Source of the DNA: an uncultured delta proteobacterium
Lineage (GTDB): Bacteria; Desulfobacterota; Binatia; UBA9968
DNA: 64,000 bases
Direction: 5' to 3'
NCBI GenBank assembly: GCA_963816145.1
Contig: CAWFJP010000002.1
Coordinates: forward strand, 282,669 to 346,668
Under the pieces are notes generated by a model. That model ran no database searches, was not told the origin of the DNA, and saw only the letters and a list, made by a program, of their open reading frames with translations. The position numbers and the translations under genes were made by a program. This document shows, piece by piece, positions 1,997-53,614 of the stretch (the stretch's first letter is position 1; every line of letters starts with the position of its first letter).

Positions 1997-3727
1997 ATGG
2001 AACTCACCAGGCGCGCGCCCCTTCGATCGGTTCAATTTCCAAAAATTCCATGGGCGTGGATCCCTTTGAGCGCGCTTGTCGGGCTGTTGATCGTAATGCT
2101 CGCCTACCCGCTGGCGCTGCTGTTCATCAAAAGTTTCGCTGTGACACGCCCCGGTGAGCCGACCGTCTGGGCGATGACAGGCTGGGTCGAAGCGTTTACG
2201 GACAGCAAGCTTGCCGTCGCCATCGGCAACACCTTCTACCTGGCGTTTCTTAGGGTCGTCATCACCACTGTGCTGGCAATTTTTTTCGCCTGGGTCGTAA
2301 CCCGCACGGACACGCCACTCAAGGGCTTCATCGAAGTGACGCTCTGGCTCGGCTTTTTTTTGCCGCTTCTCCCGATGACCATGGGTTGGATTCTGCTGCT
2401 GGATCCTTACAACGGACTTGCCAATAAGCTTCTTATGCAATCCTTTGGTCTCGCACGGCCTCCTTTCGATATCTTTTCTTACTGGGGCATTGTCTGGTGT
2501 CACCTGGCCTTCAGCACTTCGGTAAGATTCCTGTTGCTGACGCCCGCGTTCACGGCCATGGACGCGGCTCTAGAAGACGCCGCGCGCACCTCCGGCAGCA
2601 ACAATATGGGCGTGTTGCTACGCATCACCATACCAATTTTAGCGCCCGCCGTGCTCGCCTCCACGGCGTTGGGATTCATCAGGAGCCTCGAATCGTTGGA
2701 AATAGAAATGGTTCTTGGCATTCCCGCGGGCATCTACGTGGTGCCCACCAAAATCTGGGACTACATTCACTGGGAGCCGCCGCTTTACGATCGGGCCACT
2801 GCGCTGTGCAGCGTCTTTCTGCTTTTCGTCTTCTTTCTCATTTGGCTGCACCGGATTTTTCTCCGCGGTAAGGAATTCACTACGGTCAGCGGCCGCAGCT
2901 ACATGGTGCGGATTTTTCCGCTCGGCCGCTGGCGCTGGGTGACCTGCGGGTTCTGCCTTCTCTTTATCTTCGTGATGATCATCTTGCCGCTCGCGATGTT
3001 GATGATGGGCACATTCATGGAGTTCTTCGGCAACTTCACGACGGAGAAAGTATGGACGGTTCATCACTGGACCGCGGTCTTCACCGATCCGGTGTTTTTA
3101 GGTTCATTGAAAAACACCCTGGTCCTTGGATTGGGAGCCGGCATTGTCGGAACGATCCTCTACTCAACGATCAGTTATGTCATCGTGCGCACAAAGCTGC
3201 CGGGCCGCGGTGTCGTCGACATCCTGTCCTGGCTACCTTGGGCTCTGCCGGGAGTACTCATCAGCCTGGCCCTGCTATGGGCTGCGCTCGGATCTGGCGA
3301 TTATGTGAAGCTCGTCTACGGAACCGTTTCTCTTTTGGTGTTGGCGATAATCATCAAAGAGATGCCGCTCGGAACCCAGATCATCAAGGCAAGCGTGCTC
3401 CAGATCAGCCGTGAATTAGAGGAAGCTTCCAGCGCCGCGGGCGCCACACGGTTCACCGGTTTTTGCCGCATCATGCTACCGCTGCTGAGGCCAACGATGC
3501 TCTCGGTGGGGATCATAGTTTTCATCTCCGCCGCGCGTGACATCCCGACGGTGATCTTCCTGTCGACGAGTCAGAGCCGGACACTGTCTTTACTGATGCT
3601 TGACTACATCTCCGATGCCAACCAAGAGAAAGCCGCGGTGCTCGGTGTCTTTTTGGTCTTTCTCATCTTCGCTTTATTATTCGTCAGCTGGCTATTGGGT
3701 TTCCGGCGGAATGCTGTGCGCTCATGA
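1997..3727 (+). CDS. ABC transporter permease, duplicated MetI-like domains (Fe3+/FbpB-like type)
   Basis: 576 aa and very hydrophobic. Two EAA-type loops (LEDAARTSGSN..ITIPILAP and LEEASSAAGATRF..IMLPLLRP). Confidence 0.8.
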   Translation: MELTRRAPLRSVQFPKIPWAWIPLSALVGLLIVMLAYPLALLFIKSFAVTRPGEPTVWAMTGWVEAFTDSKLAVAIGNTFYLAFLRVVITTVLAIFFAWVVTRTDTPLKGFIEVTLWLGFFLPLLPMTMGWILLLDPYNGLANKLLMQSFGLARPPFDIFSYWGIVWCHLAFSTSVRFLLLTPAFTAMDAALEDAARTSGSNNMGVLLRITIPILAPAVLASTALGFIRSLESLEIEMVLGIPAGIYVVPTKIWDYIHWEPPLYDRATALCSVFLLFVFFLIWLHRIFLRGKEFTTVSGRSYMVRIFPLGRWRWVTCGFCLLFIFVMIILPLAMLMMGTFMEFFGNFTTEKVWTVHHWTAVFTDPVFLGSLKNTLVLGLGAGIVGTILYSTISYVIVRTKLPGRGVVDILSWLPWALPGVLISLALLWAALGSGDYVKLVYGTVSLLVLAIIIKEMPLGTQIIKASVLQISRELEEASSAAGATRFTGFCRIMLPLLRPTMLSVGIIVFISAARDIPTVIFLSTSQSRTLSLLMLDYISDANQEKAAVLGVFLVFLIFALLFVSWLLGFRRNAVRS

Positions 3728-16232: not shown

Positions 16233-17276
16233 ATGGCACCTCCAAAAGGACTCACCTACGCTCAGGCTGGCGTTAGCATCGAAGCCGGCGATGAATTGGT
16301 GCGGCGCATCGGCCCCATCGCGAAGCGAACCAAGGTGCCCGGCGTGCTCGCCGGCGTCGGCGGTTTCAGCGCGCTGTTCGACCTCAAATCGCGCGGCTAC
16401 CGCAACCCTGTTTTGGTTTCCTCCACCGACGGCGTCGGTACCAAGCTCAAGATCGCCTTTCAAACCGGCATTCATGACACCATCGGCATCGATTTAGTTG
16501 CCATGGGCGTCAACGATATTTTGACCCAGGGCGCGGCGCCGCTATTTTTCTTGGACTACTTTGTCTGCGGCAAGCTCGACGTAGAAATCACCGAAGCAGT
16601 GATGCGCGGTATCGCCGCCGGCTGCCGCCAGGCTGGCTGTGCGCTGATCGGTGGCGAGACTGCCGAGCATCCCGGCGATTTTTCGAAAGGCGAGTACGAT
16701 CTCGCCGGCTTCATCGTCGGGGTTTTGGAGAAAAAGCGGATTATCGATTCGGCGGCGATCGTTCCGGGCGATGTTTTGATCGGCATTCCGTCCAGCGGAT
16801 TGCACAGTAACGGCTATTCCTTGGCGCGCAAGGTTTTGCTCGAACGGGGCGGATTGAAACTTCACCGTCGTATGGCCGAGCTCAGTCGTAAACTCGGTGA
16901 GGAACTGCTCGAACCGACGCGGATTTACGCCAAAATCACCAAGAAGTTGTTCGGCGAGTTTCGCATCAAAGGCGTGGCGCATATCACCGGCGGCGGTATC
17001 ACGGGGAATCTGCCGAGAGTGTTGCCGCAAGGGCGGCACGCGATAATCCAACGGGCGAGCTGGCCGGTGCCGCCGGTTTTCAATTTAATTCAAAAAATTG
17101 GTGCGGTTAGCCAGGCTGAGATGGACGCGACGTTCAATATGGGCCTCGGCATGATTCTCGTCGTGGCGAAAAAGGACGCCGACCGGGTTGTCGGCGTGCT
17201 GCAACGCATGCGCGAGCGCTGCTTTGTTATCGGCGAGGTTCGCCAAGGATCGAAGGGCGCGACGATTCGTTCGTAA
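16233..17276 (+). CDS. purM: phosphoribosylformylglycinamidine cyclo-ligase (AIR synthetase)
   Basis: LTYAQAGVSIEAGDELV, GGFSALFDL, VSSTDGVGTKL, GGETAE and HITGGG motifs; 347 aa. Confidence 0.92.
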   Translation: MAPPKGLTYAQAGVSIEAGDELVRRIGPIAKRTKVPGVLAGVGGFSALFDLKSRGYRNPVLVSSTDGVGTKLKIAFQTGIHDTIGIDLVAMGVNDILTQGAAPLFFLDYFVCGKLDVEITEAVMRGIAAGCRQAGCALIGGETAEHPGDFSKGEYDLAGFIVGVLEKKRIIDSAAIVPGDVLIGIPSSGLHSNGYSLARKVLLERGGLKLHRRMAELSRKLGEELLEPTRIYAKITKKLFGEFRIKGVAHITGGGITGNLPRVLPQGRHAIIQRASWPVPPVFNLIQKIGAVSQAEMDATFNMGLGMILVVAKKDADRVVGVLQRMRERCFVIGEVRQGSKGATIRS

Positions 17277-17280
17277 AGTT

Positions 17281-17943
17281 ATGGCAAGGCAAGTTCCCAT
17301 CGGTGTGTTGGTTTCGGGTGGCGGCACCAATCTCCAGGCGATCATCGACGCCATCGAGACTGGGACGCTCGACGCTCAGATACAATTCGTCTTGAGTAAC
17401 AAAGCCGACGCTTTCGGACTAGCGCGCGCGCAAAAGCACGGCATTCCCACCGAAGTCTTGGACCACAAGGCTTATTCGAGCCGCGAGGCCTATGACCAAG
17501 CAGTGGTCGACCTGTTGCGCCGGCGCGGCGTCGAATTGGTGATCCTCGCCGGCTTCATGCGGCTGCTTTCTTCCGTGTTCATCAAGGCCTACTCCAACCG
17601 CATTATGAACATTCACCCGGCTTTGCTGCCGTCATTTCCCGGCCTTCACGTGCAAAAAAAGGCCGTGGATCACGGCGTGCGCTTTTCCGGCTGCACGGTC
17701 CATTTCGTCAACGAGGAGTGCGACGAGGGGCCGATCGTCATCCAAGCAGTAGTGCCGGTGTTTCCCGACGATAACGACGAAACCTTAGCCGCACGGATTC
17801 TCAAACAGGAACATCAGATCTATCCCCGAGCTATTCAGCTCTACGCCGAAGGCCGCCTCCATGTGAGTGGTCGGCGGGTGCTGGTAGACGGACTGACCAA
17901 GGATGAGGGCGCAGTACTCATCCAACCGCCGTTGGAACGATGA
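17281..17943 (+). CDS. purN: phosphoribosylglycinamide formyltransferase
   Basis: ATG 17281 gives MARQVPIGVLVSGGGTNLQAIIDA. Also NIHPALLPSFPG and GCTVHFV motifs. Directly follows purM. Confidence 0.9.
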   Translation: MARQVPIGVLVSGGGTNLQAIIDAIETGTLDAQIQFVLSNKADAFGLARAQKHGIPTEVLDHKAYSSREAYDQAVVDLLRRRGVELVILAGFMRLLSSVFIKAYSNRIMNIHPALLPSFPGLHVQKKAVDHGVRFSGCTVHFVNEECDEGPIVIQAVVPVFPDDNDETLAARILKQEHQIYPRAIQLYAEGRLHVSGRRVLVDGLTKDEGAVLIQPPLER

Positions 17944-44353: not shown

Positions 44354-44429
44354 TCCCCGGTAGCTCAGTTGGTAGAGCAGGTGACTGTTAATCACCGGGT
44401 CGGGGGTTCGAGTCCCTCCCGGGGAGCCA
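44354..44429 (+). tRNA. tRNA-Asn (anticodon GTT), CCA encoded
   Basis: Manual cloverleaf. Acceptor TCCCCGG/CCGGGGA, D-arm GCTC..GAGC, anticodon stem GGTGA/TCACC with loop CTGTTAA, T-arm GGGGG-TTCGAGT-CCCTC, discriminator G, CCA. Confidence 0.93.
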
Positions 44430-44628
44430 GATATTCATATAATCAGATACCTCGTTTTGGCTGTCGGATAAAGTTCGTTTTTCGAGCGTAGCCTTCGGAT
44501 TCGCAAGGAAAGCGAAAACCTCAAACCCACTCTATAAAATCAAGATTTTATTTATCTGTTGGTTTAAGATTGCAGTCTTGCGGCCGTGTTTCGTGATGAG
44601 TTCGTCCTACACTCGAAAAGGTTAAAGG

Positions 44629-46251
44629 GTGCGCTCCATGGTGAAATCAGCTCTCACTGTTCTTCATCAACTCGTTGAAAAAGCGATTGCTGCGATTTCG
44701 TCAAAGAGCCTGTCGATTGTTTTGGTGGCCGTCCTTGCATTGGCGGGTTGCGCGACGATGGGATTTTTGCTGGGCATTCGGCAACCCCAAAGTCACGACG
44801 AGTTCAGCTACCTGCTCGCCGCCGATACCTTTGCTCATGGCAGGCTGACCAACCCGACCCACCCGATGTGGGTGCACTTCGAAACGCTGCATGTCATTCA
44901 CCAACCGAGCTACATGTCCAAATTTATGCCGGCGCAGGGAATCATTCTCATGCTCGGCAAGGTTCTCGGCGGTCATCCGATCGTTGGAGTTTGGTTCTCC
45001 ATGGCTTTCATGTGTGCCGTTATTTGCTGGATGTTGCAGGGGTGGTTGCCGACCCGCTGGGCTTTGCTCGGCGGCATCTTTGCAGTGATTCATCCGAACA
45101 TTGGCGTTGGCAATTACTGGGCGCAAAGTTACTGGGGTGGCGCGCTGCCTGCCGCCGGCGGTGCGTTGCTCCTGGGAGGCGTGCGCCATCTCATGGTCAC
45201 GCCGCGCACGGGTTACGCGGTAGCTGCCGCAATGGGTTTGGCGCTTCTCGCCAACAGCCGGCCGTATGAGGGTCTGGTTCTCAGTCTCCCGGTTGGGTTG
45301 GTATTCTTCAACTGGTTGGTCGGCAAGAATCGGCCGCCGGCGCCGGTTTTGATTCGCAGCATCCTGCTGCCCTTCGTCCTGATCGGTGTTCTCACGGTCG
45401 GCGCCATGGCCTACTACAACTACCGTATCACCGGCAACGTCGCGCAAATTCCGTACCTTCTACATACGCAACAATACATGATGTCGACACTTTTTATTTG
45501 GCAGCCGCTGCCGCCGAAACCTCACTATCGCCATCAACTCATCGAAGACTTTCATGCCCGATTCGAGCTCCCGTACTATCTGGAAAAACGTACTCTAAAG
45601 GGCTTTGTCACGATTAACTTCTTATCCTTTGCTTACCACATTGTTTTGGTCGGCAGCGTGTTCGCGATATCACTGATCGGTTCGGCTAAACAATTACTCT
45701 CATGGGCATGGAACGACCCTTGGGGGCGATTCGCGCTGTTTATTTACGGCTTTTTCATTTTTGGCATAATGATAGAAACCTACGCGTTGCCGCACTACTG
45801 GGCGCCGGTCACCGCGCTCAGCTACCTTTTTCTTTTGCAAGGTCTTCGACTTTGGCGCGAGCGCAATCCTCGGGTCGGGCAAGCCGTTTTGATCGCGCTG
45901 CCCATTCTGGCGCTAGCGATCTTGATCATGACGACATACCACTTGGTTGCGACCCGTGATGAGTTCACGCCTCCTAGGCAGCGAGCACGGTTGTTGCAGC
46001 GATTGAGCGAAGGCGACGGTCGGCACTTGGTTCTGGTCAAGTATGGACCGCACCATTCGTATTTCATGGAATGGGTCTATAACGACGCCGACATCGACGG
46101 CTCGAAGGTCGTCTGGGCCCGCGCCATGGATGATCAGGAAGACTGCAAGCTGGTGGCCTATTTCAAAGACCGTAAGGTCTGGTCATTGGCCATCGATTAT
46201 GATGAGTCGCCGGTACGGTTGGAGCCCTTGCCAACGGAATCTTGCCGTTGA
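44629..46251 (+). CDS. polytopic membrane protein, possibly GT-C fold (ArnT/PMT-like) glycosyltransferase
   Basis: 540 aa with many TM segments. HDEFSY acidic motif in the first predicted external loop, as in GT-C enzymes. Start is GTG 44629 or ATG 44638. Confidence 0.4.
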   Translation: MRSMVKSALTVLHQLVEKAIAAISSKSLSIVLVAVLALAGCATMGFLLGIRQPQSHDEFSYLLAADTFAHGRLTNPTHPMWVHFETLHVIHQPSYMSKFMPAQGIILMLGKVLGGHPIVGVWFSMAFMCAVICWMLQGWLPTRWALLGGIFAVIHPNIGVGNYWAQSYWGGALPAAGGALLLGGVRHLMVTPRTGYAVAAAMGLALLANSRPYEGLVLSLPVGLVFFNWLVGKNRPPAPVLIRSILLPFVLIGVLTVGAMAYYNYRITGNVAQIPYLLHTQQYMMSTLFIWQPLPPKPHYRHQLIEDFHARFELPYYLEKRTLKGFVTINFLSFAYHIVLVGSVFAISLIGSAKQLLSWAWNDPWGRFALFIYGFFIFGIMIETYALPHYWAPVTALSYLFLLQGLRLWRERNPRVGQAVLIALPILALAILIMTTYHLVATRDEFTPPRQRARLLQRLSEGDGRHLVLVKYGPHHSYFMEWVYNDADIDGSKVVWARAMDDQEDCKLVAYFKDRKVWSLAIDYDESPVRLEPLPTESCR

Positions 46252-46491
46252 TGCGCTGGGGCCGCGCGCCCGCAGTGATCGTTTCAAATTCGCGCAGCCG
46301 CTGAGGCCTTTTAATTTGTTGAATTTAGGGTGGGCATACGTTACTTTGACCACGCCTCTGGATAGGCTTGACGTAGACGGTGGAGAACTCGCGCTTGGTT
46401 TGCGGACGCGCTTAGACTACTGCTATGCGTCACACGCGATCTAATGGCGCCCATAGAAATTTTTTTAGAGCACGGTAGGAGGTTTTTTCTG

Positions 46492-48717
46492 ATGGCATCA
46501 ACGAACCAAGTCGTCGGTAATCCAACCCCAAGAATCGAAGGCGAACTCAAGGTCAGCGGTCAGGCCAAGTATGCGGTGGACGTGACCTTGCCCGGTATGC
46601 TCTGGGGCAAATTGCTGCGCAGCCCGATCGCCTCGGGTAAAATCAAGCGTATCGATGCCAGCAAGGCGGAAAAACTCAAAGGCGTGCGTGCGATTGTCAC
46701 GGGAGCGGATTGCTCGGGCCTAAAAATCGGCCGCAGACTCTATGACATGCCGATCATCGCCGACGGCGAAGTGCGCTTCATCGGTGAAAAGGTTGTGGCG
46801 GTGGCGGCGGACAGCGAGGACATTGCCGAAGAGGCGTTGAATCTGATCGAGGTCGAGTATGAAGAGACCGAACCCTTGCTCGATCCGGTCGAAGCGCTCA
46901 AGCCGGGGGCGAAACTCCTTCATCCCGATGTCATGAGTTACAAAGGGTTACCCAATCCGCTCAAGGAGCCGACCAACGATTTTGTCTACGTCACTTGGGG
47001 CAAAGGCGATCCTGAGGCCGGATTTCGCCAGGCGGACGTGATCGTCGAAAACACTTTTACCACGCCGGTCGTGCATCAGAGTTACATCGAGCCCCATTCC
47101 TGTGTCGTCAGCACTGCGGCCGACGGTTCGGCGGAATTCTGGTCGTGCAGCAAAGTGCCCTACGGCGTGCGCGAACAAGTCGCCAACGCGCTCAAGCTGC
47201 CGCAAGAAAAACTCAACTTTAACCCCGTCTATATCGGGGGTGACTTCGGCGGCAAGGGCGATTTCATGGATCTTGCCGTGGTTTATCTCTTGTCCAAGAA
47301 AGCCGGACGGCCGGTCAAGATGGTAATGGACTACGAAGAGGAATTCACCGCGGGCAATCCGCGGCACGCGTCAATCATCCACGTTAAAACCGGCGTAAAA
47401 AAAGACGGCACCCTGGTCGCACACCGCATGAGTTTTATTTTCGACAGCGGCGCCTACGGCGCATTTAAACCCAACGCCTTTCTCAACGGCCCGCACCTGT
47501 CCGCTGGGCCGTACAAGATTCCTCACGTATTTATCGAGGAACATATGGTCTACACCAACAAGATCCCCTGCGGCCATATGCGCTCGCCTGGCGACCCCCA
47601 GGGATTCTTCGCTAATGAAAGTCAATTGGACATGATCGCTAAAAAGATTGGCATGGACCCGATCAAGTTGCGCCAGAAAAACCTCATGCACGACGGCGAT
47701 ATCGATCCGACCGGCGAGGAGTATAGTTACATCAAAACCGACGAGACGCTCAAGAAAGCGCTGGACGACTCGGGCTATCAAAAACCCAAGCCGAAAAACG
47801 TTGGACGCGGTATCGCGCTGGTGCAGTGGACGCCCGCCGGCGGGACAGGCACGGTCGCGATCTCGATCGATGAGAAAAGCGTGGCGACGATTTCTTCCGC
47901 CATGGCCGATCAGGGCGCGGGCACTTACACCGTGCTCAGCGAAATCGTCGCCGAAGAGCTCAAGATCCCGTTGAGCCAAATCAAAACTCAGCAACTGGAC
48001 ACGCAGAATGGCGTAAAGGATACCGGGGTCGGCGGCAGCCGGGCGACACGCGTTTACGGCACGGCGGGTTATCAAGCGGCGATCAAGGCCGTCAATGCGA
48101 TTAAACAAGCGGCCGCGAGTCAGATGGGCGTGCCGGCAGATCAGATCATCCTCGCCAAGGGCGCGGCGCTGCATCCGCGCATGGAGCGCCGCTTGACCTA
48201 CGGCGAGATCGTCAAGGCGAACGGCGGGCCAATCGCGGTGGATGCCACGTTCAACGACAACAAGAAAATTCATGCCGCCTCCATGTGCGTTCAGGTGGCG
48301 GAGGTGGAAGTGGACCCCGAAACGGGTCGGGTGGAGCTCAAGAAATTCACTTCGACTCACAACACCGGCACCGTGCTCAATCCGCTCATGCACCAGGGCC
48401 AGATTGAAGGCGCCAGCATGACCGGCATCGGCTACACGCTGATGGAGGAAGTGATCATCAACGACGGTAAAGTCGCGACGACCCACTTCGGCGAGTACAA
48501 GATCCCCACCATCAAGGATGTTCCGGTATTCAAAGGCTCGGTTTCGGAAGCACCGCACGGAGCGGGCCCGTATGACAGCATGCCGATCGGCGAGACCGGT
48601 AATATTCCGACGGCGGCCGCCATCGCCAATGCGGTGGAAGACGCCTGCGGTGTGCGCATCACCAGCCTGCCGATTACAGCGGAGAAGATCTACCAAGCGC
48701 TGCACGGCGCCAAGTGA
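46492..48717 (+). CDS. xanthine dehydrogenase/aldehyde oxidase family molybdopterin-binding subunit
   Basis: ATG 46492 with AGGAGG upstream. N-terminal GNPTPRIEGELKVSGQAKYAVD, and C-terminal ..GEYKIPT..D.P..APHGAGPYD..IGE typical of CoxL/XdhB-like large subunits. Confidence 0.85.
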   Translation: MASTNQVVGNPTPRIEGELKVSGQAKYAVDVTLPGMLWGKLLRSPIASGKIKRIDASKAEKLKGVRAIVTGADCSGLKIGRRLYDMPIIADGEVRFIGEKVVAVAADSEDIAEEALNLIEVEYEETEPLLDPVEALKPGAKLLHPDVMSYKGLPNPLKEPTNDFVYVTWGKGDPEAGFRQADVIVENTFTTPVVHQSYIEPHSCVVSTAADGSAEFWSCSKVPYGVREQVANALKLPQEKLNFNPVYIGGDFGGKGDFMDLAVVYLLSKKAGRPVKMVMDYEEEFTAGNPRHASIIHVKTGVKKDGTLVAHRMSFIFDSGAYGAFKPNAFLNGPHLSAGPYKIPHVFIEEHMVYTNKIPCGHMRSPGDPQGFFANESQLDMIAKKIGMDPIKLRQKNLMHDGDIDPTGEEYSYIKTDETLKKALDDSGYQKPKPKNVGRGIALVQWTPAGGTGTVAISIDEKSVATISSAMADQGAGTYTVLSEIVAEELKIPLSQIKTQQLDTQNGVKDTGVGGSRATRVYGTAGYQAAIKAVNAIKQAAASQMGVPADQIILAKGAALHPRMERRLTYGEIVKANGGPIAVDATFNDNKKIHAASMCVQVAEVEVDPETGRVELKKFTSTHNTGTVLNPLMHQGQIEGASMTGIGYTLMEEVIINDGKVATTHFGEYKIPTIKDVPVFKGSVSEAPHGAGPYDSMPIGETGNIPTAAAIANAVEDACGVRITSLPITAEKIYQALHGAK

Positions 48718-48720
48718 TGC

Positions 48721-49269
48721 ATGGCGTCATTTCCGGGAACCATCGATCTCGGAAAGTTTCGGGTCGTTTATGAAGAAGAGCGGGAGCGGCCGTCCGATGG
48801 AACGGACGGCTACCTCCTGCAGCAGCGCGCCGTCATTCGCCTCAACGAAGAGCTGGTCAAACTCGAACAGCGCGACGACTACACGGTCTACTGCGACGAC
48901 GAGAATTTCAAGAAACAGCACGGCAAGCGGCCGTCGCCGCTGCAATATTTCATCGCCTCGATCGGTTTCTGCATGTTCAGCCAGTTCAAGCGGCTAGCCG
49001 CCAAAGCGGAAGTCGCCGTCGACGACCTCGAAATGGAGCTGCGCATGACCTACGACTTGAGCGGTAAGTTTCCCATCAAAGATTTTTCCGATGCCGCCCA
49101 AGGAATCGCCTACGTTTTCAAAATCAAAAGCGCCGCGCCGCTAGAAAAAGTGCTGCCCGTGGTCCAGGCCGCCGACAAAGGCTGCCATACGGTGAATTCG
49201 ATGCGTAAACGCGTGCCGGTGTCGGGGAGATTCGTTCTCAACGAATGCATCTATGATTTAACCGATTGA
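48721..49269 (+). CDS. OsmC/Ohr-family protein
   Basis: 182 aa with two family-typical Cys contexts (ASIGFCMFSQ and ADKGCHTVNS). Confidence 0.7.
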   Translation: MASFPGTIDLGKFRVVYEEERERPSDGTDGYLLQQRAVIRLNEELVKLEQRDDYTVYCDDENFKKQHGKRPSPLQYFIASIGFCMFSQFKRLAAKAEVAVDDLEMELRMTYDLSGKFPIKDFSDAAQGIAYVFKIKSAAPLEKVLPVVQAADKGCHTVNSMRKRVPVSGRFVLNECIYDLTD

Positions 49270-49365
49270 TCGATTGGCGAGTTTTGTGTCGGGACAAGGC
49301 GCGCCTTGCCGTTGTGCGCGTTACGGAATAAATCTTCGTAGACTGAACCAAAGGAATACCCATCC

Positions 49366-49917
49366 ATGGCAAAACTGACGGTGGGCGACCAATTTCCCCC
49401 GGCAAAACTAAACGACATCGACGGTCTTGCCGTCAACTTCCCCGCCGTATTCAAAAACGCCCCAGCGACGGTGGTGTTTTTCTACCGCGGCCGCTGGTGA
49501 CCCTGGTGCCGGGCCCAGGTGACGGCCTTTGTTTACGAATGGGAGCGGTACCTAGAAGGAAACGTACAGATCCTCGGCATCAGCGTCGAGCCACCGGAGG
49601 AGGGCAAGAAACTTAAAGAGCGCGTGACGCGCGACTGCCAGGAAGACCGTCCGCATATTTCGCTCGATCCCTACCCGGTGCGTTTGCTCAGCGATCCCGA
49701 TGCGACGTTGATCCGCGCGTGCGGCACGGAAAACGAAGGCCACTGGGCCGGAACGATCGCTGCGCCGGTGACCTATGTCGTCGGTCCCAGCGGTCTGGTG
49801 AAATGGGCCTACGTCAGCGATAGCGCCGCCGACCGGCCGAGTCCGGTGGCATTGGCCAAAGCGGCGTGCGCAGTGGCGGCGGGTCACGCGCCACCCGCAA
49901 CCTATCCGGGGAAATAG
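49366..49917 (+). CDS. peroxiredoxin-like-2 / AhpC-TSA thioredoxin-fold redoxin with in-frame TGA (candidate Sec, UxxC)
   Basis: ATG 49366 (AAGGAA upstream), then 44 sense codons to TGA 49498..49500. The same frame continues into ORF 49519..49917. The joined sequence reads VVFFYRGRW-[TGA]-PWC. Confidence 0.6.
49502..49528 (+). promoter_or_regulatory. GC-rich stem-loops 3' of TGA 49498 (weak SECIS candidate)
   Basis: Alternative 5-bp stems CCTGG(49502-06)/CCAGG(49515-19) or GGGCC(49511-15)/GGCCT(49524-28) with loop CAGGTGAC. Not evaluated thermodynamically. Confidence 0.25.
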
Positions 49918-50275: not shown

Positions 50276-50728
50276 ATGATTCTCGACGGCACCATCGATC
50301 TTAACGCCCCGGTGGAAAAGGCCTGGGACTTTTTGATCGATATCAACAAATTTTCCACCTGCTTACCGGGTATCGACTCGGTGACGCAGATCGACGACAA
50401 GACCTTCGACGGGATCATTTCGGCGACGGTTGGGCCGATTTCCGGCAAGTTCAACTTTCGCTCGACGATCGTCGAGAGCATGCCGCCGGCGCAGATGGTG
50501 GTCAAGACCGAAGGCCAGGATACGGTGACCAAGAGCACGGTCAACGCCGACATGACGGTCGATCTGCGGCGGGTTTCCGACACTTCGTCGCAGATGGACT
50601 ACAAGGCCGATGTGAAAATCAAAGGCCGGCTGGGCATACTCGGCGATATGGTGTTGCGGGCGACGGCGACTTTGATTCTGCAAGAGTTCACCAAGAGACT
50701 GCATCAAGGGCTTGGCGCGCAGAGTTAA
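50276..50728 (+). CDS. CoxG/SRPBCC family protein (carbon monoxide dehydrogenase subunit G-like)
   Basis: MILDGTIDLNAPVEKAWDFLIDINKFSTCLPG..GPISGKFNF.. pattern typical of CoxG; 150 aa. Confidence 0.75.
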   Translation: MILDGTIDLNAPVEKAWDFLIDINKFSTCLPGIDSVTQIDDKTFDGIISATVGPISGKFNFRSTIVESMPPAQMVVKTEGQDTVTKSTVNADMTVDLRRVSDTSSQMDYKADVKIKGRLGILGDMVLRATATLILQEFTKRLHQGLGAQS

Positions 50729-50863: not shown

Positions 50864-52375
50864 ATGGCGGATAAGTATGACGTAATCATAGTCGGCGGCG
50901 GTTCGGCCGGCTGCGTGGCAGCGACCCGGCTGTCGGAAGATCCCAATCGAAAAGTGTTGCTGCTCGAAGCGGGTCCTGATCCTTGGCCGCTGCCGGAGTT
51001 GGTTGCTGAGTCGAAGAACCAAACGCGCTTGTTGTTGGAGTCCGATTATGTCTCGATGTTCGGCACCCAGCGCCACTTAGACGGCAGCACGTACTATGCG
51101 CTCGCCGGCCGTATCATGGGCGGCGGGTCGTCGGTTAACGTCATGTCGGTGCTGCGGCCGCAGCGCTACGATTTGGATCAATGGGTGGCGGCGGGCAATC
51201 CGGATTGGACCTACGAGCGCTGTCTGCCGTTCATGAAGAAGATCGAGGCGGATCAAGATTTTCCCAACGACCCGATTCACGGCAAAGACGGGCCGCTCTA
51301 CGTCAAGCGCCAGTACACGCTCGACATGCCGATGTCGCCGCCGGCGCGGGCCTTCATCGACGCTGCCTACGCCATGGGATTGCCGAAGTGCCCGGACTTG
51401 AACGTCCCCGAGCCCTACGGTGTGTGCGCGTCGCCGTACAACATCAAAGACGGCAAGCGGCAGTCGACGGTGGTGGCGTATTTGAATAGCGCCCGTGAGC
51501 GGAAGAACCTGACGATCATCGACCAAGCCACCGTGCATACGCTGAAGCTCAACGGCAAAAAATGCGAAGGCGTCAATTATGAGTGCGACGGCCAAATGCA
51601 CAGCGCGCTCGGCGGACAGATCCTGCTGACCTCCGGAGTTTACGGATCACCGCAGATTCTCATGCTCACCGGCATCGGCGAGACGGAGCAGCTCAAGAAA
51701 CATAACATTCCACTGGTGCACGAGCTGAAGGGTGTCGGCGAGAATTATCAAGATCATCCGGTGGTCTTTATGACCTTTGAGGGGCCCAAGGAATCGAAGG
51801 AAGACTGGGTGGTGCCGCGCTTCCGTTTGATCATCCGTAAGAACCCGATCAGCGAAGCGGCTAATTTCCACATCAATATGCGGCCGCCGACGGAAGTGAC
51901 CGGCTTGAAGCGGATGATGCCGATCTCGGCGCATTTGCTTGAACAGCGCAATCGCGGCCGGGTGTTTTTACAAAGCGGCGATCCGCATGATCAGGTCGGC
52001 ATCGACTCCTGCATGCTCGAACATCCCGAGGATTTGAAAGCGATGGTCGAGGCGATGCAGTTCATTGACGAGTTGGTGCACCGGCCGGAAGTGAAAGAAT
52101 ACTATGGCCCGCTGATCCAGCCGGGGCCGGGTGAAGACTGGGGCGAATTCGCGCGCAAGACCTACGATAGCTACCACCACGGCGTCGGCACATGTAAGAT
52201 GGGGCCGGCGAGCGATCCGATGGCGGTGGTCGATCAGCGTCTGCGCGTGCACGGCATTCAAAACCTCTGGGTTGGCGATGCGTCGATCATGCCGGTGGTG
52301 AGCCGGGCGAATACCAATCTCACTTCGATCATGATCGGCGAGCGCTTAGCGGATTTTGTCCAGGAGGTCGCTTAG
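50864..52375 (+). CDS. GMC-family FAD-dependent oxidoreductase (choline dehydrogenase-like)
   Basis: YDVIIVGGGSAGCVAATRLSEDPNRKVLLLEAG, plus C-terminal HHGVGTCKMG and VGDASIMP signatures. Confidence 0.88.
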   Translation: MADKYDVIIVGGGSAGCVAATRLSEDPNRKVLLLEAGPDPWPLPELVAESKNQTRLLLESDYVSMFGTQRHLDGSTYYALAGRIMGGGSSVNVMSVLRPQRYDLDQWVAAGNPDWTYERCLPFMKKIEADQDFPNDPIHGKDGPLYVKRQYTLDMPMSPPARAFIDAAYAMGLPKCPDLNVPEPYGVCASPYNIKDGKRQSTVVAYLNSARERKNLTIIDQATVHTLKLNGKKCEGVNYECDGQMHSALGGQILLTSGVYGSPQILMLTGIGETEQLKKHNIPLVHELKGVGENYQDHPVVFMTFEGPKESKEDWVVPRFRLIIRKNPISEAANFHINMRPPTEVTGLKRMMPISAHLLEQRNRGRVFLQSGDPHDQVGIDSCMLEHPEDLKAMVEAMQFIDELVHRPEVKEYYGPLIQPGPGEDWGEFARKTYDSYHHGVGTCKMGPASDPMAVVDQRLRVHGIQNLWVGDASIMPVVSRANTNLTSIMIGERLADFVQEVA

Positions 52376-52536: not shown

Positions 52537-53046
52537 ATGTCCGACTATCCATTGACCGCTGCGGCGATCAAGAATGAATTCAAACGCGCCGGCATCCAGT
52601 TCGTTGTCGCGCTGCCGGATCGCGTGACGAGTCATCATTTGCTCAAAGGCCTGATCGCCGATCCCGATTACAAAGTCGTCCAGGTCTGTAAAGAAGACGA
52701 GGGCGTGTCAATTTGCAGCGGTCTGTACGCCGCCGGCCATAAGTCGGTGTTGATGATGCAGTACACCGGCTTCCTCGATTCCATCAACTCGATCCGCGGT
52801 ATCGCCGTCGAAGGCAAATTCCCCGTCTGCATCGTCGTTGGCTTGCTCGGCAAGGAGCCCGATGTCGCGCCGTCCAAGTCGAAGAAGTATGGCGTCAAGA
52901 TCATCGAACCGATCTGCGAGGTCATGGGCCTTGAGCATTGTCTTGTCGAACGGGACGCCGATACGCCAAAAATATTTTCCGCCATCGAAAAATCGTTCGC
53001 CAACTCGTCGCCGAGCGTAATTATGATCGGAAGGGAGCCGCGCTAA
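52537..53046 (+). CDS. TPP-dependent decarboxylase, alpha (PYR-domain) subunit, sulfopyruvate/phosphonopyruvate decarboxylase-like
   Basis: 169 aa. GIQFVVALPD..., CKEDEGVSICSGLYAAG and MMQYTGF resemble ComD-type subunits. Confidence 0.65.
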   Translation: MSDYPLTAAAIKNEFKRAGIQFVVALPDRVTSHHLLKGLIADPDYKVVQVCKEDEGVSICSGLYAAGHKSVLMMQYTGFLDSINSIRGIAVEGKFPVCIVVGLLGKEPDVAPSKSKKYGVKIIEPICEVMGLEHCLVERDADTPKIFSAIEKSFANSSPSVIMIGREPR

Positions 53047-53047
53047 C

Positions 53048-53614
53048 ATGATGAAGCGAGATGAGATGCTGAAAGCCTTTGCGCGCCAGCGCAAAGATGA
53101 AATCGTTGTAGCGGTGTACATGGCGGCCCAGGAGATCACGCATATCTCGCCGAGCGAACTCAACTACACCTTCATCGGCGCCATGGGACAGGGGTCGTCT
53201 CATGCGCTGGGCTTGGCGCTGGGCCGGCCGGACAAGAAAGTCGTCGTGTTCGACGGCGACGGCAGCTTGTTGATGAATCTGGGTTCGCTGGTGACCATCG
53301 GCAATCAAGCGCCGAAGAATTATATTCATTGCTTATGCGAAAACGGCTGCTACGAAACCAACGGTTCGGTGCTGACGCCCAACTCGGGAAACATCCGCTT
53401 TGCCGAGTTCGCCAAGACCGCCGGCTACAAGAAAACTTACGAGATCGCCGACCTCGCCGAGTGGGAACAGAAGCTGCCGGAAATTCTCAAGGCTGAGGGG
53501 CCGGTCTTCGTTACGCTGAAAGTCGAGCCGGGCGAAGCCTACCCCGAGAACTTCCCGCGCCTCTACAGCACCGAACACCGGGAAAAGTTTCGCCAGACGC
53601 TGGCCAAGAGTTGA
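53048..53614 (+). CDS. TPP-dependent decarboxylase, beta (PP-domain) subunit
   Basis: GAMGQGSSHALGLAL...VVVFDGDGSLLMNLGSL...N TPP-binding motif; 188 aa. Starts 1 nt after the alpha subunit stop. Confidence 0.68.
   Translation: MMKRDEMLKAFARQRKDEIVVAVYMAAQEITHISPSELNYTFIGAMGQGSSHALGLALGRPDKKVVVFDGDGSLLMNLGSLVTIGNQAPKNYIHCLCENGCYETNGSVLTPNSGNIRFAEFAKTAGYKKTYEIADLAEWEQKLPEILKAEGPVFVTLKVEPGEAYPENFPRLYSTEHREKFRQTLAKS

Follow-up and report, generated by a model that had tools for sequence, protein, structure and literature searches.

Prx-like thiol:disulfide oxidoreductases with selenocysteine (Sec, U) in the active site reportedly go back to a 2004 prediction by Kryukov and Gladyshev, and the Global Ocean Sampling (GOS) study is said to have named the same class 'Prx-like 1'. 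The class (PF00578, UxxC or UxxU) is an established predicted prokaryotic selenoprotein family (Table 1 of PMC13188914), and so is the OsmC-like protein (PF02566, UxxT; PMC13188914, PMC2398784). Here we examine an in-frame TGA at positions 49498-49500 of a 64,000-nucleotide stretch of Binatia DNA (the window; contig CAWFJP010000002.1, positions 282,669 to 346,668, from the uncultured delta proteobacterium assembly GCA_963816145.1). With a probability of roughly 90%, positions 49366-49917 of the window form one gene for a predicted 183-residue, thioredoxin-fold, Prx-like Sec redoxin, with Sec encoded at the UGA. Judged from sequence comparison, the in-frame TGA is almost certainly a Sec codon. 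The observations behind this reading are a conserved UGA, alignment of Sec with Cys, coding constraint on both sides of the codon, RNA-level constraint on a downstream hairpin, the fold and synteny.

On its predicted features, the gene founds a new subfamily within the Prx-like thiol:disulfide oxidoreductases, a class already known. An earlier reading made from the DNA letters alone (the sequence-only reading) had invoked Sec-containing Prx-like oxidoreductases as an established class, which the PF00578 UxxC family indeed is, and the gene carries its defining features. With that class it shares the AhpC/TSA domain, the thioredoxin fold, Sec as the first residue of UxxC, homologues with CxxC and a selenocysteine insertion sequence (SECIS), here a candidate hairpin, directly downstream in the coding sequence. 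It differs in having its own insertion with Cys91, in the absence of any Cys-form orthologue among ~97 copies, in its synteny with a molybdenum (Mo)-hydroxylase gene and in its soil or groundwater hosts of Binatia type. The class has a reference protein from Geobacter, WP_010940744.1.

The PRX_like2 CxxC redoxins (CDD cd02970) also resemble the subfamily, through an FYRGxWCPxC-type motif in the distant Cys homologue P0202; this likeness is one of motif, and in our gene Sec replaces the first Cys. In PRX_like2, as here, the second Cys corresponds to the peroxidatic Cys of peroxiredoxins, with the Pro and Thr of the Prx motif absent. The cd02970 selenoprotein in the review of PMC13188914 is listed with UxxS, not UxxC. 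A literature search combining Binatia/Binatota with selenocysteine found no report of Sec use, and the gene would add a well-supported selenoprotein subfamily to this phylum-level lineage.

Reading frame, fold and conservation of the TGA

An ATG at 49366, with a Shine-Dalgarno-like AAGGAA on the same strand (49351-49356) ending 9 nt before it, opens 44 sense codons, MAKLTVGDQFPPAKLNDIDGLAVNFPAVFKNAPATVVFFYRGRW, that run into the TGA at 49498-49500 (junction FFYRGRW-TGA-PWC). Past the TGA the same frame stays open up to a TAG at 49915-49917, giving 183 codons with the TGA as sense and a full forward-strand coding sequence, stop included, of 49366-49917. The open reading frame (ORF) list for the locus holds only the two pieces, 49366-49500 (44 aa) and a GTG-started tail at 49519-49917 (132 aa). 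The sequence-only reading had described exactly this layout: AAGGAA about 10 nt upstream of the ATG, 44 sense codons before the TGA, an open frame to 49917 and a listed ORF that is only the tail. The start Met is kept in 12 of 13 genome relatives.

With U set to Cys, the joined protein matches Pfam AhpC-TSA (PF00578) from residue 6 to residue 147 (E 2e-20; 73.3 bits, gathering cutoff 26) and Pfam Redoxin from residue 6 to residue 154. The AhpC-TSA domain therefore straddles the TGA, and both domain and structural model need the two halves, bearing out the earlier remark that a complete fold takes more than either half. The curated NCBIfam models all miss the protein: the best of them, the SelL-related redox protein (NF040769), was rejected at 25.7 bits against a cutoff of 120, and identity as a BCP/PrxQ peroxiredoxin was likewise rejected (BCP NF006960, 29.1 bits against 140).

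An exhaustive HMMER search recovered three distant full-length Cys homologues, P0202, P0189 and P0172. The UGA column holds the only Cys invariant among them (VVVFYRGDWCPICRQQ in P0202, VRGPWCPVCRRQ in P0189), namely the first Cys of CxxC in motifs such as FYRGDWCPIC (P0202) and VRGPWCPVC (P0189). The second Cys, in the column of C48 (49507-49509), is present in two of the three. P0202 carries the FYRGxWCPxC motif that the sequence-only reading had named, with U45 of the U45-P-W-C48 motif (Sec codon 49498-49500) aligned to its first Cys. The expectation that U would fall on the peroxidatic/CxxC Cys was borne out for the first Cys of CxxC but not for the peroxidatic position, which is that of C48. 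Specifically, phmmer alignment with BCP structures (PDB 2cx3, 3hjp) places the peroxidatic Cys on C48, the Ser/Thr of PxxxT/SxxC on U45 and its Pro on R41. The motif is therefore a thioredoxin-like UxxC with U off the peroxidatic position. C48 is invariant in the family alignments, and the PxxxT/SxxC signature of a typical peroxiredoxin gives way to RxxxUxxC, with Pro and Thr/Ser absent.

An AlphaFold model of the homologue P0001 (86% identical; mean pLDDT 80.9, pTM 0.80) has the Trx/Prx fold and seats U45-P-W-C48 between strand 34-40 and helix 47-57, in a loop with pLDDT ~59. Its best PDB fold matches are BCP/PrxQ proteins (3hjp, 3drn, 2cx3, 5epf; TM 0.68-0.85, with 0.75/0.85 for 3hjp), which are also the best PDB sequence matches; ResA-type CxxC oxidoreductases match as well. 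BCP/PrxQ proteins share the fold and the alignment of C48 with their peroxidatic Cys, but they have PxxxT/SxxC where our protein has RxxxUxxC, which is CxxC-like as in the ResA-type oxidoreductases. A family-specific insertion, RDCQEDRPHISLD, missing from the Cys-type homologues, carries a further invariant Cys, C91 (49636-49638), a putative third redox or resolving Cys.

Searching 5.8 billion proteins, we obtained 349 relatives. Among the 120 best of these, about 117 are 132-133-aa tails covering 72% of the query, the same miscall as in the window. They go by names such as 'AhpC', 'peroxiredoxin' or 'redoxin domain-containing protein'; with a family model of their own, these entries would be annotated correctly. 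The subfamily is compact, with 82 representatives matching the tail among 1.84 billion proteins.

We then turn to the DNA of the relatives. A scan of species-representative genomes yielded 14 loci, mostly from Candidatus Binatia or from metagenome-assembled genomes (MAGs) labelled 'Deltaproteobacteria', and 13 of these have an in-frame TGA at the same codon together with the conserved N-terminal 44 residues. In the fourteenth, L014, the Sec gene (3001-3471) is frameshifted throughout, consistent with an error-prone assembly. A metagenome scan contributed 80 further loci. All 95 motif instances from the window and the 94 loci of the two scans, which come from independent assemblies, have TGA at the Sec codon, well beyond what chance would give. 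So do the divergent relative L095 (tail 51% identical) and L098. The TGA-bearing copies thus total 97 (the window plus 96 loci, 13 species-level MAGs included) and span 51-99% protein identity. A Cys codon (TGC or TGT) at this site, which the sequence-only reading had named as evidence that would tell against Sec, occurs in none of the ~97 copies; one of the two scan patterns demanded a Cys codon there, and it recovered no Cys form.

The sole haplotype that has lost the TGA reads TTA (Leu) and was found in two independent samples (L096, 1247-1798; L097, 828-1379), where it encodes P0001. It also carries G15A (G-to-A, Ala to Thr), which breaks the G15-C28 pair of the hairpin described below; the pattern looks like Sec loss followed by relaxation of the SECIS. 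The Leu of P0001 was checked in the DNA and is a real TTA variant and no artefact. Of the three database proteins that looked full-length (P0001, P0007 and P0030), P0030 has Arg at the Sec site according to its protein record.

Both halves of the gene are constrained as protein. Between the window and the genome relatives, dN/dS (the ratio of nonsynonymous to synonymous substitution rates) over codons 2-44 falls at 0.07-0.2 for the majority of pairs, dS being close to saturated or past it, and its median computable value is ~0.09 for codons 2-44 and likewise ~0.09 for codons 56-115. Upstream of the TGA, four-fold sites vary freely under an unchanging amino-acid sequence. The TGA-bearing genome relatives have no other stops and no frameshifts. 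The sequence-only reading had pictured, as the opposite outcome, relatives carrying two unrelated ORFs or a decayed pseudogene; they instead share the TGA, with purifying selection on either side of it.

The candidate SECIS hairpin and probable Sec decoding

The candidate bacterial SECIS (bSECIS) is a forward-strand hairpin at 49511-49528, GGGCC-CAGGUGAC-GGCCU, with a stem of 5 bp, an 8-nt loop and a 10-nt spacer after the UGA. Numbered from the U of UGA, its pairs are G13-U30, G14-C29, G15-C28, C16-G27 and C17-G26 (-7.8 kcal/mol), and its loop presents GGU at +20..+22. The six codons +4 to +9 after the UGA (CGG GCC CAG GTG ACG GCC, R-A-Q-V-T-A; 49510-49527) have a codon entropy of 0-0.5 bit, and the mean for 41 other 4/6-fold codons is 1.46 bit (p = 1.5e-6, Mann-Whitney; RNA-element statistics are from 73-76 unique sequences). 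Synonymous freezing is confined to these codons and overlaps the +13..+30 hairpin, and 68 of the 73 unique sequences keep all five of its pairs. Three copies, the most divergent ones (L083, L084, L098), carry C12A, C17G, G23U and G27U and refold at the same place, one register over, into 6 bp with a CAGGUUA loop. L095 shares the same 27 nt 3' of the TGA except at the free +5 site, with the rest of the gene diverged.

Conservation suggests that this +13..+30 hairpin is most likely the functional stem-loop, rather than the more stable stem directly after the TGA. That stem (+4..+21, -9.3 kcal/mol) was rejected as the conserved element: 22 of 73 sequences cannot form its second pair, and it leaves the frozen positions +23, +26 and +29 unexplained. 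With the UGA in the A site it would, moreover, lie inside the ribosome. The sequence-only reading had seen weak GC-rich 5-bp stems just 3' of the TGA; two such stems, +4..+21 and +13..+30, are real and mutually exclusive, and conservation backs only the second. Two further candidates, a +10..+28 stem and an outer GGCCG/CGGCC helix around the UGA, are less well conserved and were set aside. Rfam returned nothing relevant at gathering or permissive thresholds.

The closest described element is the minimal SelB-binding upper stem-loop of the Escherichia coli fdhF SECIS. Measured in the same coordinates, its stem lies at +14..+30 against +13..+30 here, its apical-loop GGU at +21 against +20, and both are short, weak stems within coding sequence (-5.7 kcal/mol for fdhF, -7.8 kcal/mol here). 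The two differ in the loop, the 8-nt CAGGUGAC here and GGUC in fdhF, in the bulged U that our hairpin lacks and in the sequence of the stem. The hairpin at 49511-49528 would be recognized by the cognate SelB. Compact and almost invariant, the candidate SECIS might serve as a search pattern or as a test case for SelB binding.

Evidence that the lineage decodes Sec comes from the neighbouring gene. Upstream of the Sec redoxin gene, at 48721-49269 on the same strand, lies a gene for an OsmC-related (seleno)protein (NCBIfam NF041052, 113.2 bits against a cutoff of 95), which in the window is the Cys form (TGC at 48970-48972). Across 23 copies, the window included, the catalytic position of this gene reads TGC or TGT, and it reads TGA in three divergent relatives (L009, position 2674; L050, position 2192; L070, position 851). 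In these three, an 8-bp hairpin, CUGACGCG-GUA-CGCGUCAG, stands at +15 from the TGA and fits the full bSECIS consensus, with GGU at +22. This pairing of an OsmC-like TGA with a canonical SECIS indicates that the lineage decodes Sec, and the three contigs would accordingly carry two adjacent selenoprotein genes. In L072, L073 and L079 (about 1857-2365), the OsmC-like gene is broken up among three frames and may be a pseudogene.

The OsmC-like selenoproteins (PF02566 UxxT; NF041052) are akin to the Sec redoxin in that both genes, adjacent to one another, handle peroxides or thiols and have a catalytic Cys exchangeable for Sec. They differ in fold, and in that the window copy is a Cys form, with the Sec form present only in L009, L050 and L070. 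Neighbouring selenoprotein gene pairs have been reported, namely Prx/SelW and Prx-like/AhpD-like (PMC13188914, PMC2398784); a Prx-like/OsmC-like pair is not among the pairs listed in these papers.

Several results weigh against a Sec gene with this hairpin as its SECIS. The bSECIS consensus (loop 3-9 nt, stem 4-16 bp, a G at loop position 1 or 2, a distance of 16-37 nt to the UGA, an MFE (minimum free energy) of at most -7.5; PMC13188914) fits only in part. The 5-bp stem and the 8-nt loop pass, and the MFE of -7.8 barely passes -7.5; the spacing is 15 nt where 16-37 are required, becoming 16 with C18-G23 closing the loop; and the loop G stands at positions 3-4, reaching position 2 (of AGGU) only if that same pair closes. 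Free RNA favours the alternative +4..+21 stem, with a pair probability of 0.85 against 0.09. The element is nearly invariant, and classical covariation support is thin. Folding of 49490-49570, proposed in the sequence-only reading as a check, gave no help, with the MFE of these 81 nt no better than that of shuffles (z = 0.69); thermodynamics alone therefore does not single out the element. Within the 64-kb window, the part of the source genome that was searched, the Sec redoxin gene is the only candidate Sec gene seen, selA, selB, selD and tRNA-Sec are all absent, and none of 60 scanned loci has a tRNA-Sec.

One ORF in the window (16233-17276; AIRS/AIRS_C) looks SelD-like by Pfam, but is PurM (431 bits for TIGR00878; SelD 27 against a cutoff of 125) and forms a purM-purN pair at 16233-17943. 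A window-wide scan for other TGA-interrupted ORFs gave 225 candidates, mostly spurious, and was uninformative.

Under the Sec reading, a ribosome would initiate at the ATG at 49366 and, on reaching the UGA, hold the first ~12 nt downstream in its mRNA channel, blocking the competing +4..+21 stem. The hairpin at 49511-49528, with its loop CAGGUGAC, would then stand at the channel entrance and recruit SelB-GTP-Sec-tRNA(Sec); Sec would be inserted and translation would carry on to the TAG at 49915. In the folded protein, Sec45 is predicted to immediately precede helix alpha1, where a CxxC redoxin has its nucleophilic first Cys. It could attack a disulfide or peroxide and then form a selenenylsulfide with C48, to be recycled by a thiol reductant. 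Fold, motif and synteny are the grounds for this putative catalytic cycle and for any proposed physiological partner.

Competing explanations for the in-frame TGA

Of the alternatives to Sec insertion, the one that survives best, though improbable, is read-through of the UGA as another amino acid, either near-cognate Trp, Cys or Arg at a leaky UGA-C or under a reassigned code. A UGA with C after it terminates translation weakly, which lends this idea some credit, as does the Trp shown at the Sec position in the database entry P0007. That Trp is a gene-call artefact, however, since the contig of P0007 carries TGA. Nor is the code reassigned: among 40 window genes supported by Pfam or NCBIfam, TGA is the stop of 18, TAA of 13 and TAG of 9, and with TGA as the normal stop of 18 genes the genetic code is therefore standard. 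The homologues with a catalytic Cys at this position form a classic Cys/Sec pair with our gene, and passive leakiness would have no need of a strongly constrained RNA element downstream. The OsmC-like genes of relatives show an independent Cys-to-TGA swap together with a canonical SECIS, which likewise speaks for Sec over leaky decoding.

Slightly less credible still is a locus with two products, a 44-aa leader and an independent 132-aa protein started at GTG 49519, with the conserved nucleotides serving re-initiation or regulation. The GTG is conserved and the AGGUGA at 49517-49522 is Shine-Dalgarno-like, but AGGUGA overlaps the GTG and is thus mispositioned for it, and no in-frame start follows at Shine-Dalgarno distance. 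A promoter/terminator scan listed the hairpin plus TTTGTTTAC as terminator-like; we rejected the call, as the T-run is not conserved and falls on freely varying third positions (TTT/TTC, GTT/GTC/GTA). The proteins argue in the same direction. A separate tail would lack strands beta1-beta3 and the redox motif, with the Pfam domain and the model requiring both halves, and the leader shows conservation at the protein level and lines up with the N-terminal part of Cys homologues of full length, their Cys at the TGA position included.

A pseudogene or a sequencing or assembly error, that is, a nonsense mutation in an ordinary CxxC redoxin, would fit the 132-aa fragment made by gene callers and the absence of Sec machinery from the window, but is effectively refuted by the same TGA in ~97 independent copies 51-99% identical with no Cys-codon allele, by dN/dS of ~0.09 on either side without further stops or frameshifts, and by L014, frameshifted throughout as in an error-prone assembly, being the only disrupted copy. 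Even together, the three alternatives are improbable beside a Sec redoxin.

Gene neighbourhood and possible role

The gene lies among oxidoreductase genes on the same strand. At 46444-48717 is a gene for a molybdopterin-binding large subunit of the xanthine dehydrogenase/CO dehydrogenase family (Pfam Ald_Xan_dh_C, MoCoBD_1 and MoCoBD_2), which scores below every NCBIfam equivalog cutoff. Among 77 loci whose upstream sequence runs to at least 300 nt, 63 have this Mo-enzyme gene directly upstream of the Sec gene and on its strand, and in 29 of those 63 the OsmC-like gene stands between the two. The promoter/terminator scan found no promoter-like site in the 96-nt gap before the ATG at 49366, so co-transcription with the upstream genes is plausible. 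Downstream, on the same strand, follow a CoxG-like (SRPBCC) gene at 50276-50728 (Pfam COXG, E 9e-21), found downstream in 13 of the loci whose downstream sequence reaches at least 500 nt, and a GMC-family flavin oxidoreductase gene at 50864-52375 (Pfam GMC_oxred_N and GMC_oxred_C), with tblastn matches in 12 loci and a downstream position in a subset.

Because the Sec gene is fixed behind the Mo-hydroxylase gene, often with the OsmC-like gene between, the predicted protein most likely serves peroxide or disulfide reduction tied to a Mo-hydroxylase oxidoreductase cluster. Such a cluster could generate reactive oxygen species, and the Sec redoxin may work beside the OsmC-like protein, which is of hydroperoxide-reductase type; possibly it is the reductant of that protein. 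The association of Sec redoxin, OsmC-like (seleno)protein and molybdenum hydroxylase suggests a functional partnership that can be tested.

A narrower role is conceivable but on balance doubtful: that the Sec redoxin is a dedicated, obligately selenium-dependent accessory of the xanthine dehydrogenase/CO dehydrogenase-family Mo enzyme and not a generic antioxidant. The family shows no Cys orthologues, and its candidate SECIS is all but frozen. Were this so, the module would consist of the Mo-enzyme large subunit, the OsmC-like (seleno)protein and the Sec redoxin, sometimes with CoxG and the GMC oxidoreductase, and the Sec redoxin might hold the Mo centre, or the sulfido ligand of that centre, in the reduced state. 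In another version, the Sec redoxin and the OsmC-like protein might form a two-(seleno)protein peroxide relay.

Further features mark the surroundings of the cluster. In the window, about 2 kb (44430-46443) separate a tRNA-Asn gene (44354-44429) from the Mo-enzyme gene. This segment is absent in 11 relatives, where the tRNA directly precedes the Mo-enzyme gene, and it may be an insertion beside the tRNA gene. It contains an ORF at 44629-46251 (540 aa) with a gene-like GC content at third codon positions (GC3, 0.64-0.73) and without a Pfam, NCBIfam or PADLOC match; neither att-like repeats nor a defence-system match was found in these ~2 kb.

Mobile or repeated sequences also occur upstream of the Sec gene in relatives. 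At about 2430-3000 in L002, a stop-interrupted, IS200/RAYT-like HUH transposase frame (VMPNHIHGI), identified by eye, replaces the OsmC-like gene, and the same 572-nt gap and transposase frame recur in L005, L022, L024 and L044. Similar repeats lie in the intergenic gaps upstream of the Sec gene in L004 (2480-3010), L018 (2170-2510) and L035 (1750-2100); their translations, of the kind RRKGAKV...LRVFASLRE, recur across frames and loci, and the segments may be repetitive extragenic palindrome (REP)-like elements. Two contigs, L005 (QHOF01000456.1) and L010 (DATJFG010000044.1), are labelled Verrucomicrobia or Verrucomicrobiia despite a locus of Binatia/'Deltaproteobacteria' type. Mis-binning or transfer is suggested by the near-identity of L005 with L002, a contig labelled 'Deltaproteobacteria'.

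Beyond the GMC oxidoreductase gene, two adjacent ORFs at 52537-53614 of the window look like the two subunits, alpha and beta, of a decarboxylase for sulfopyruvate or phosphonopyruvate, both scoring below equivalog cutoffs, and this arrangement is conserved at least in L001 and L014.

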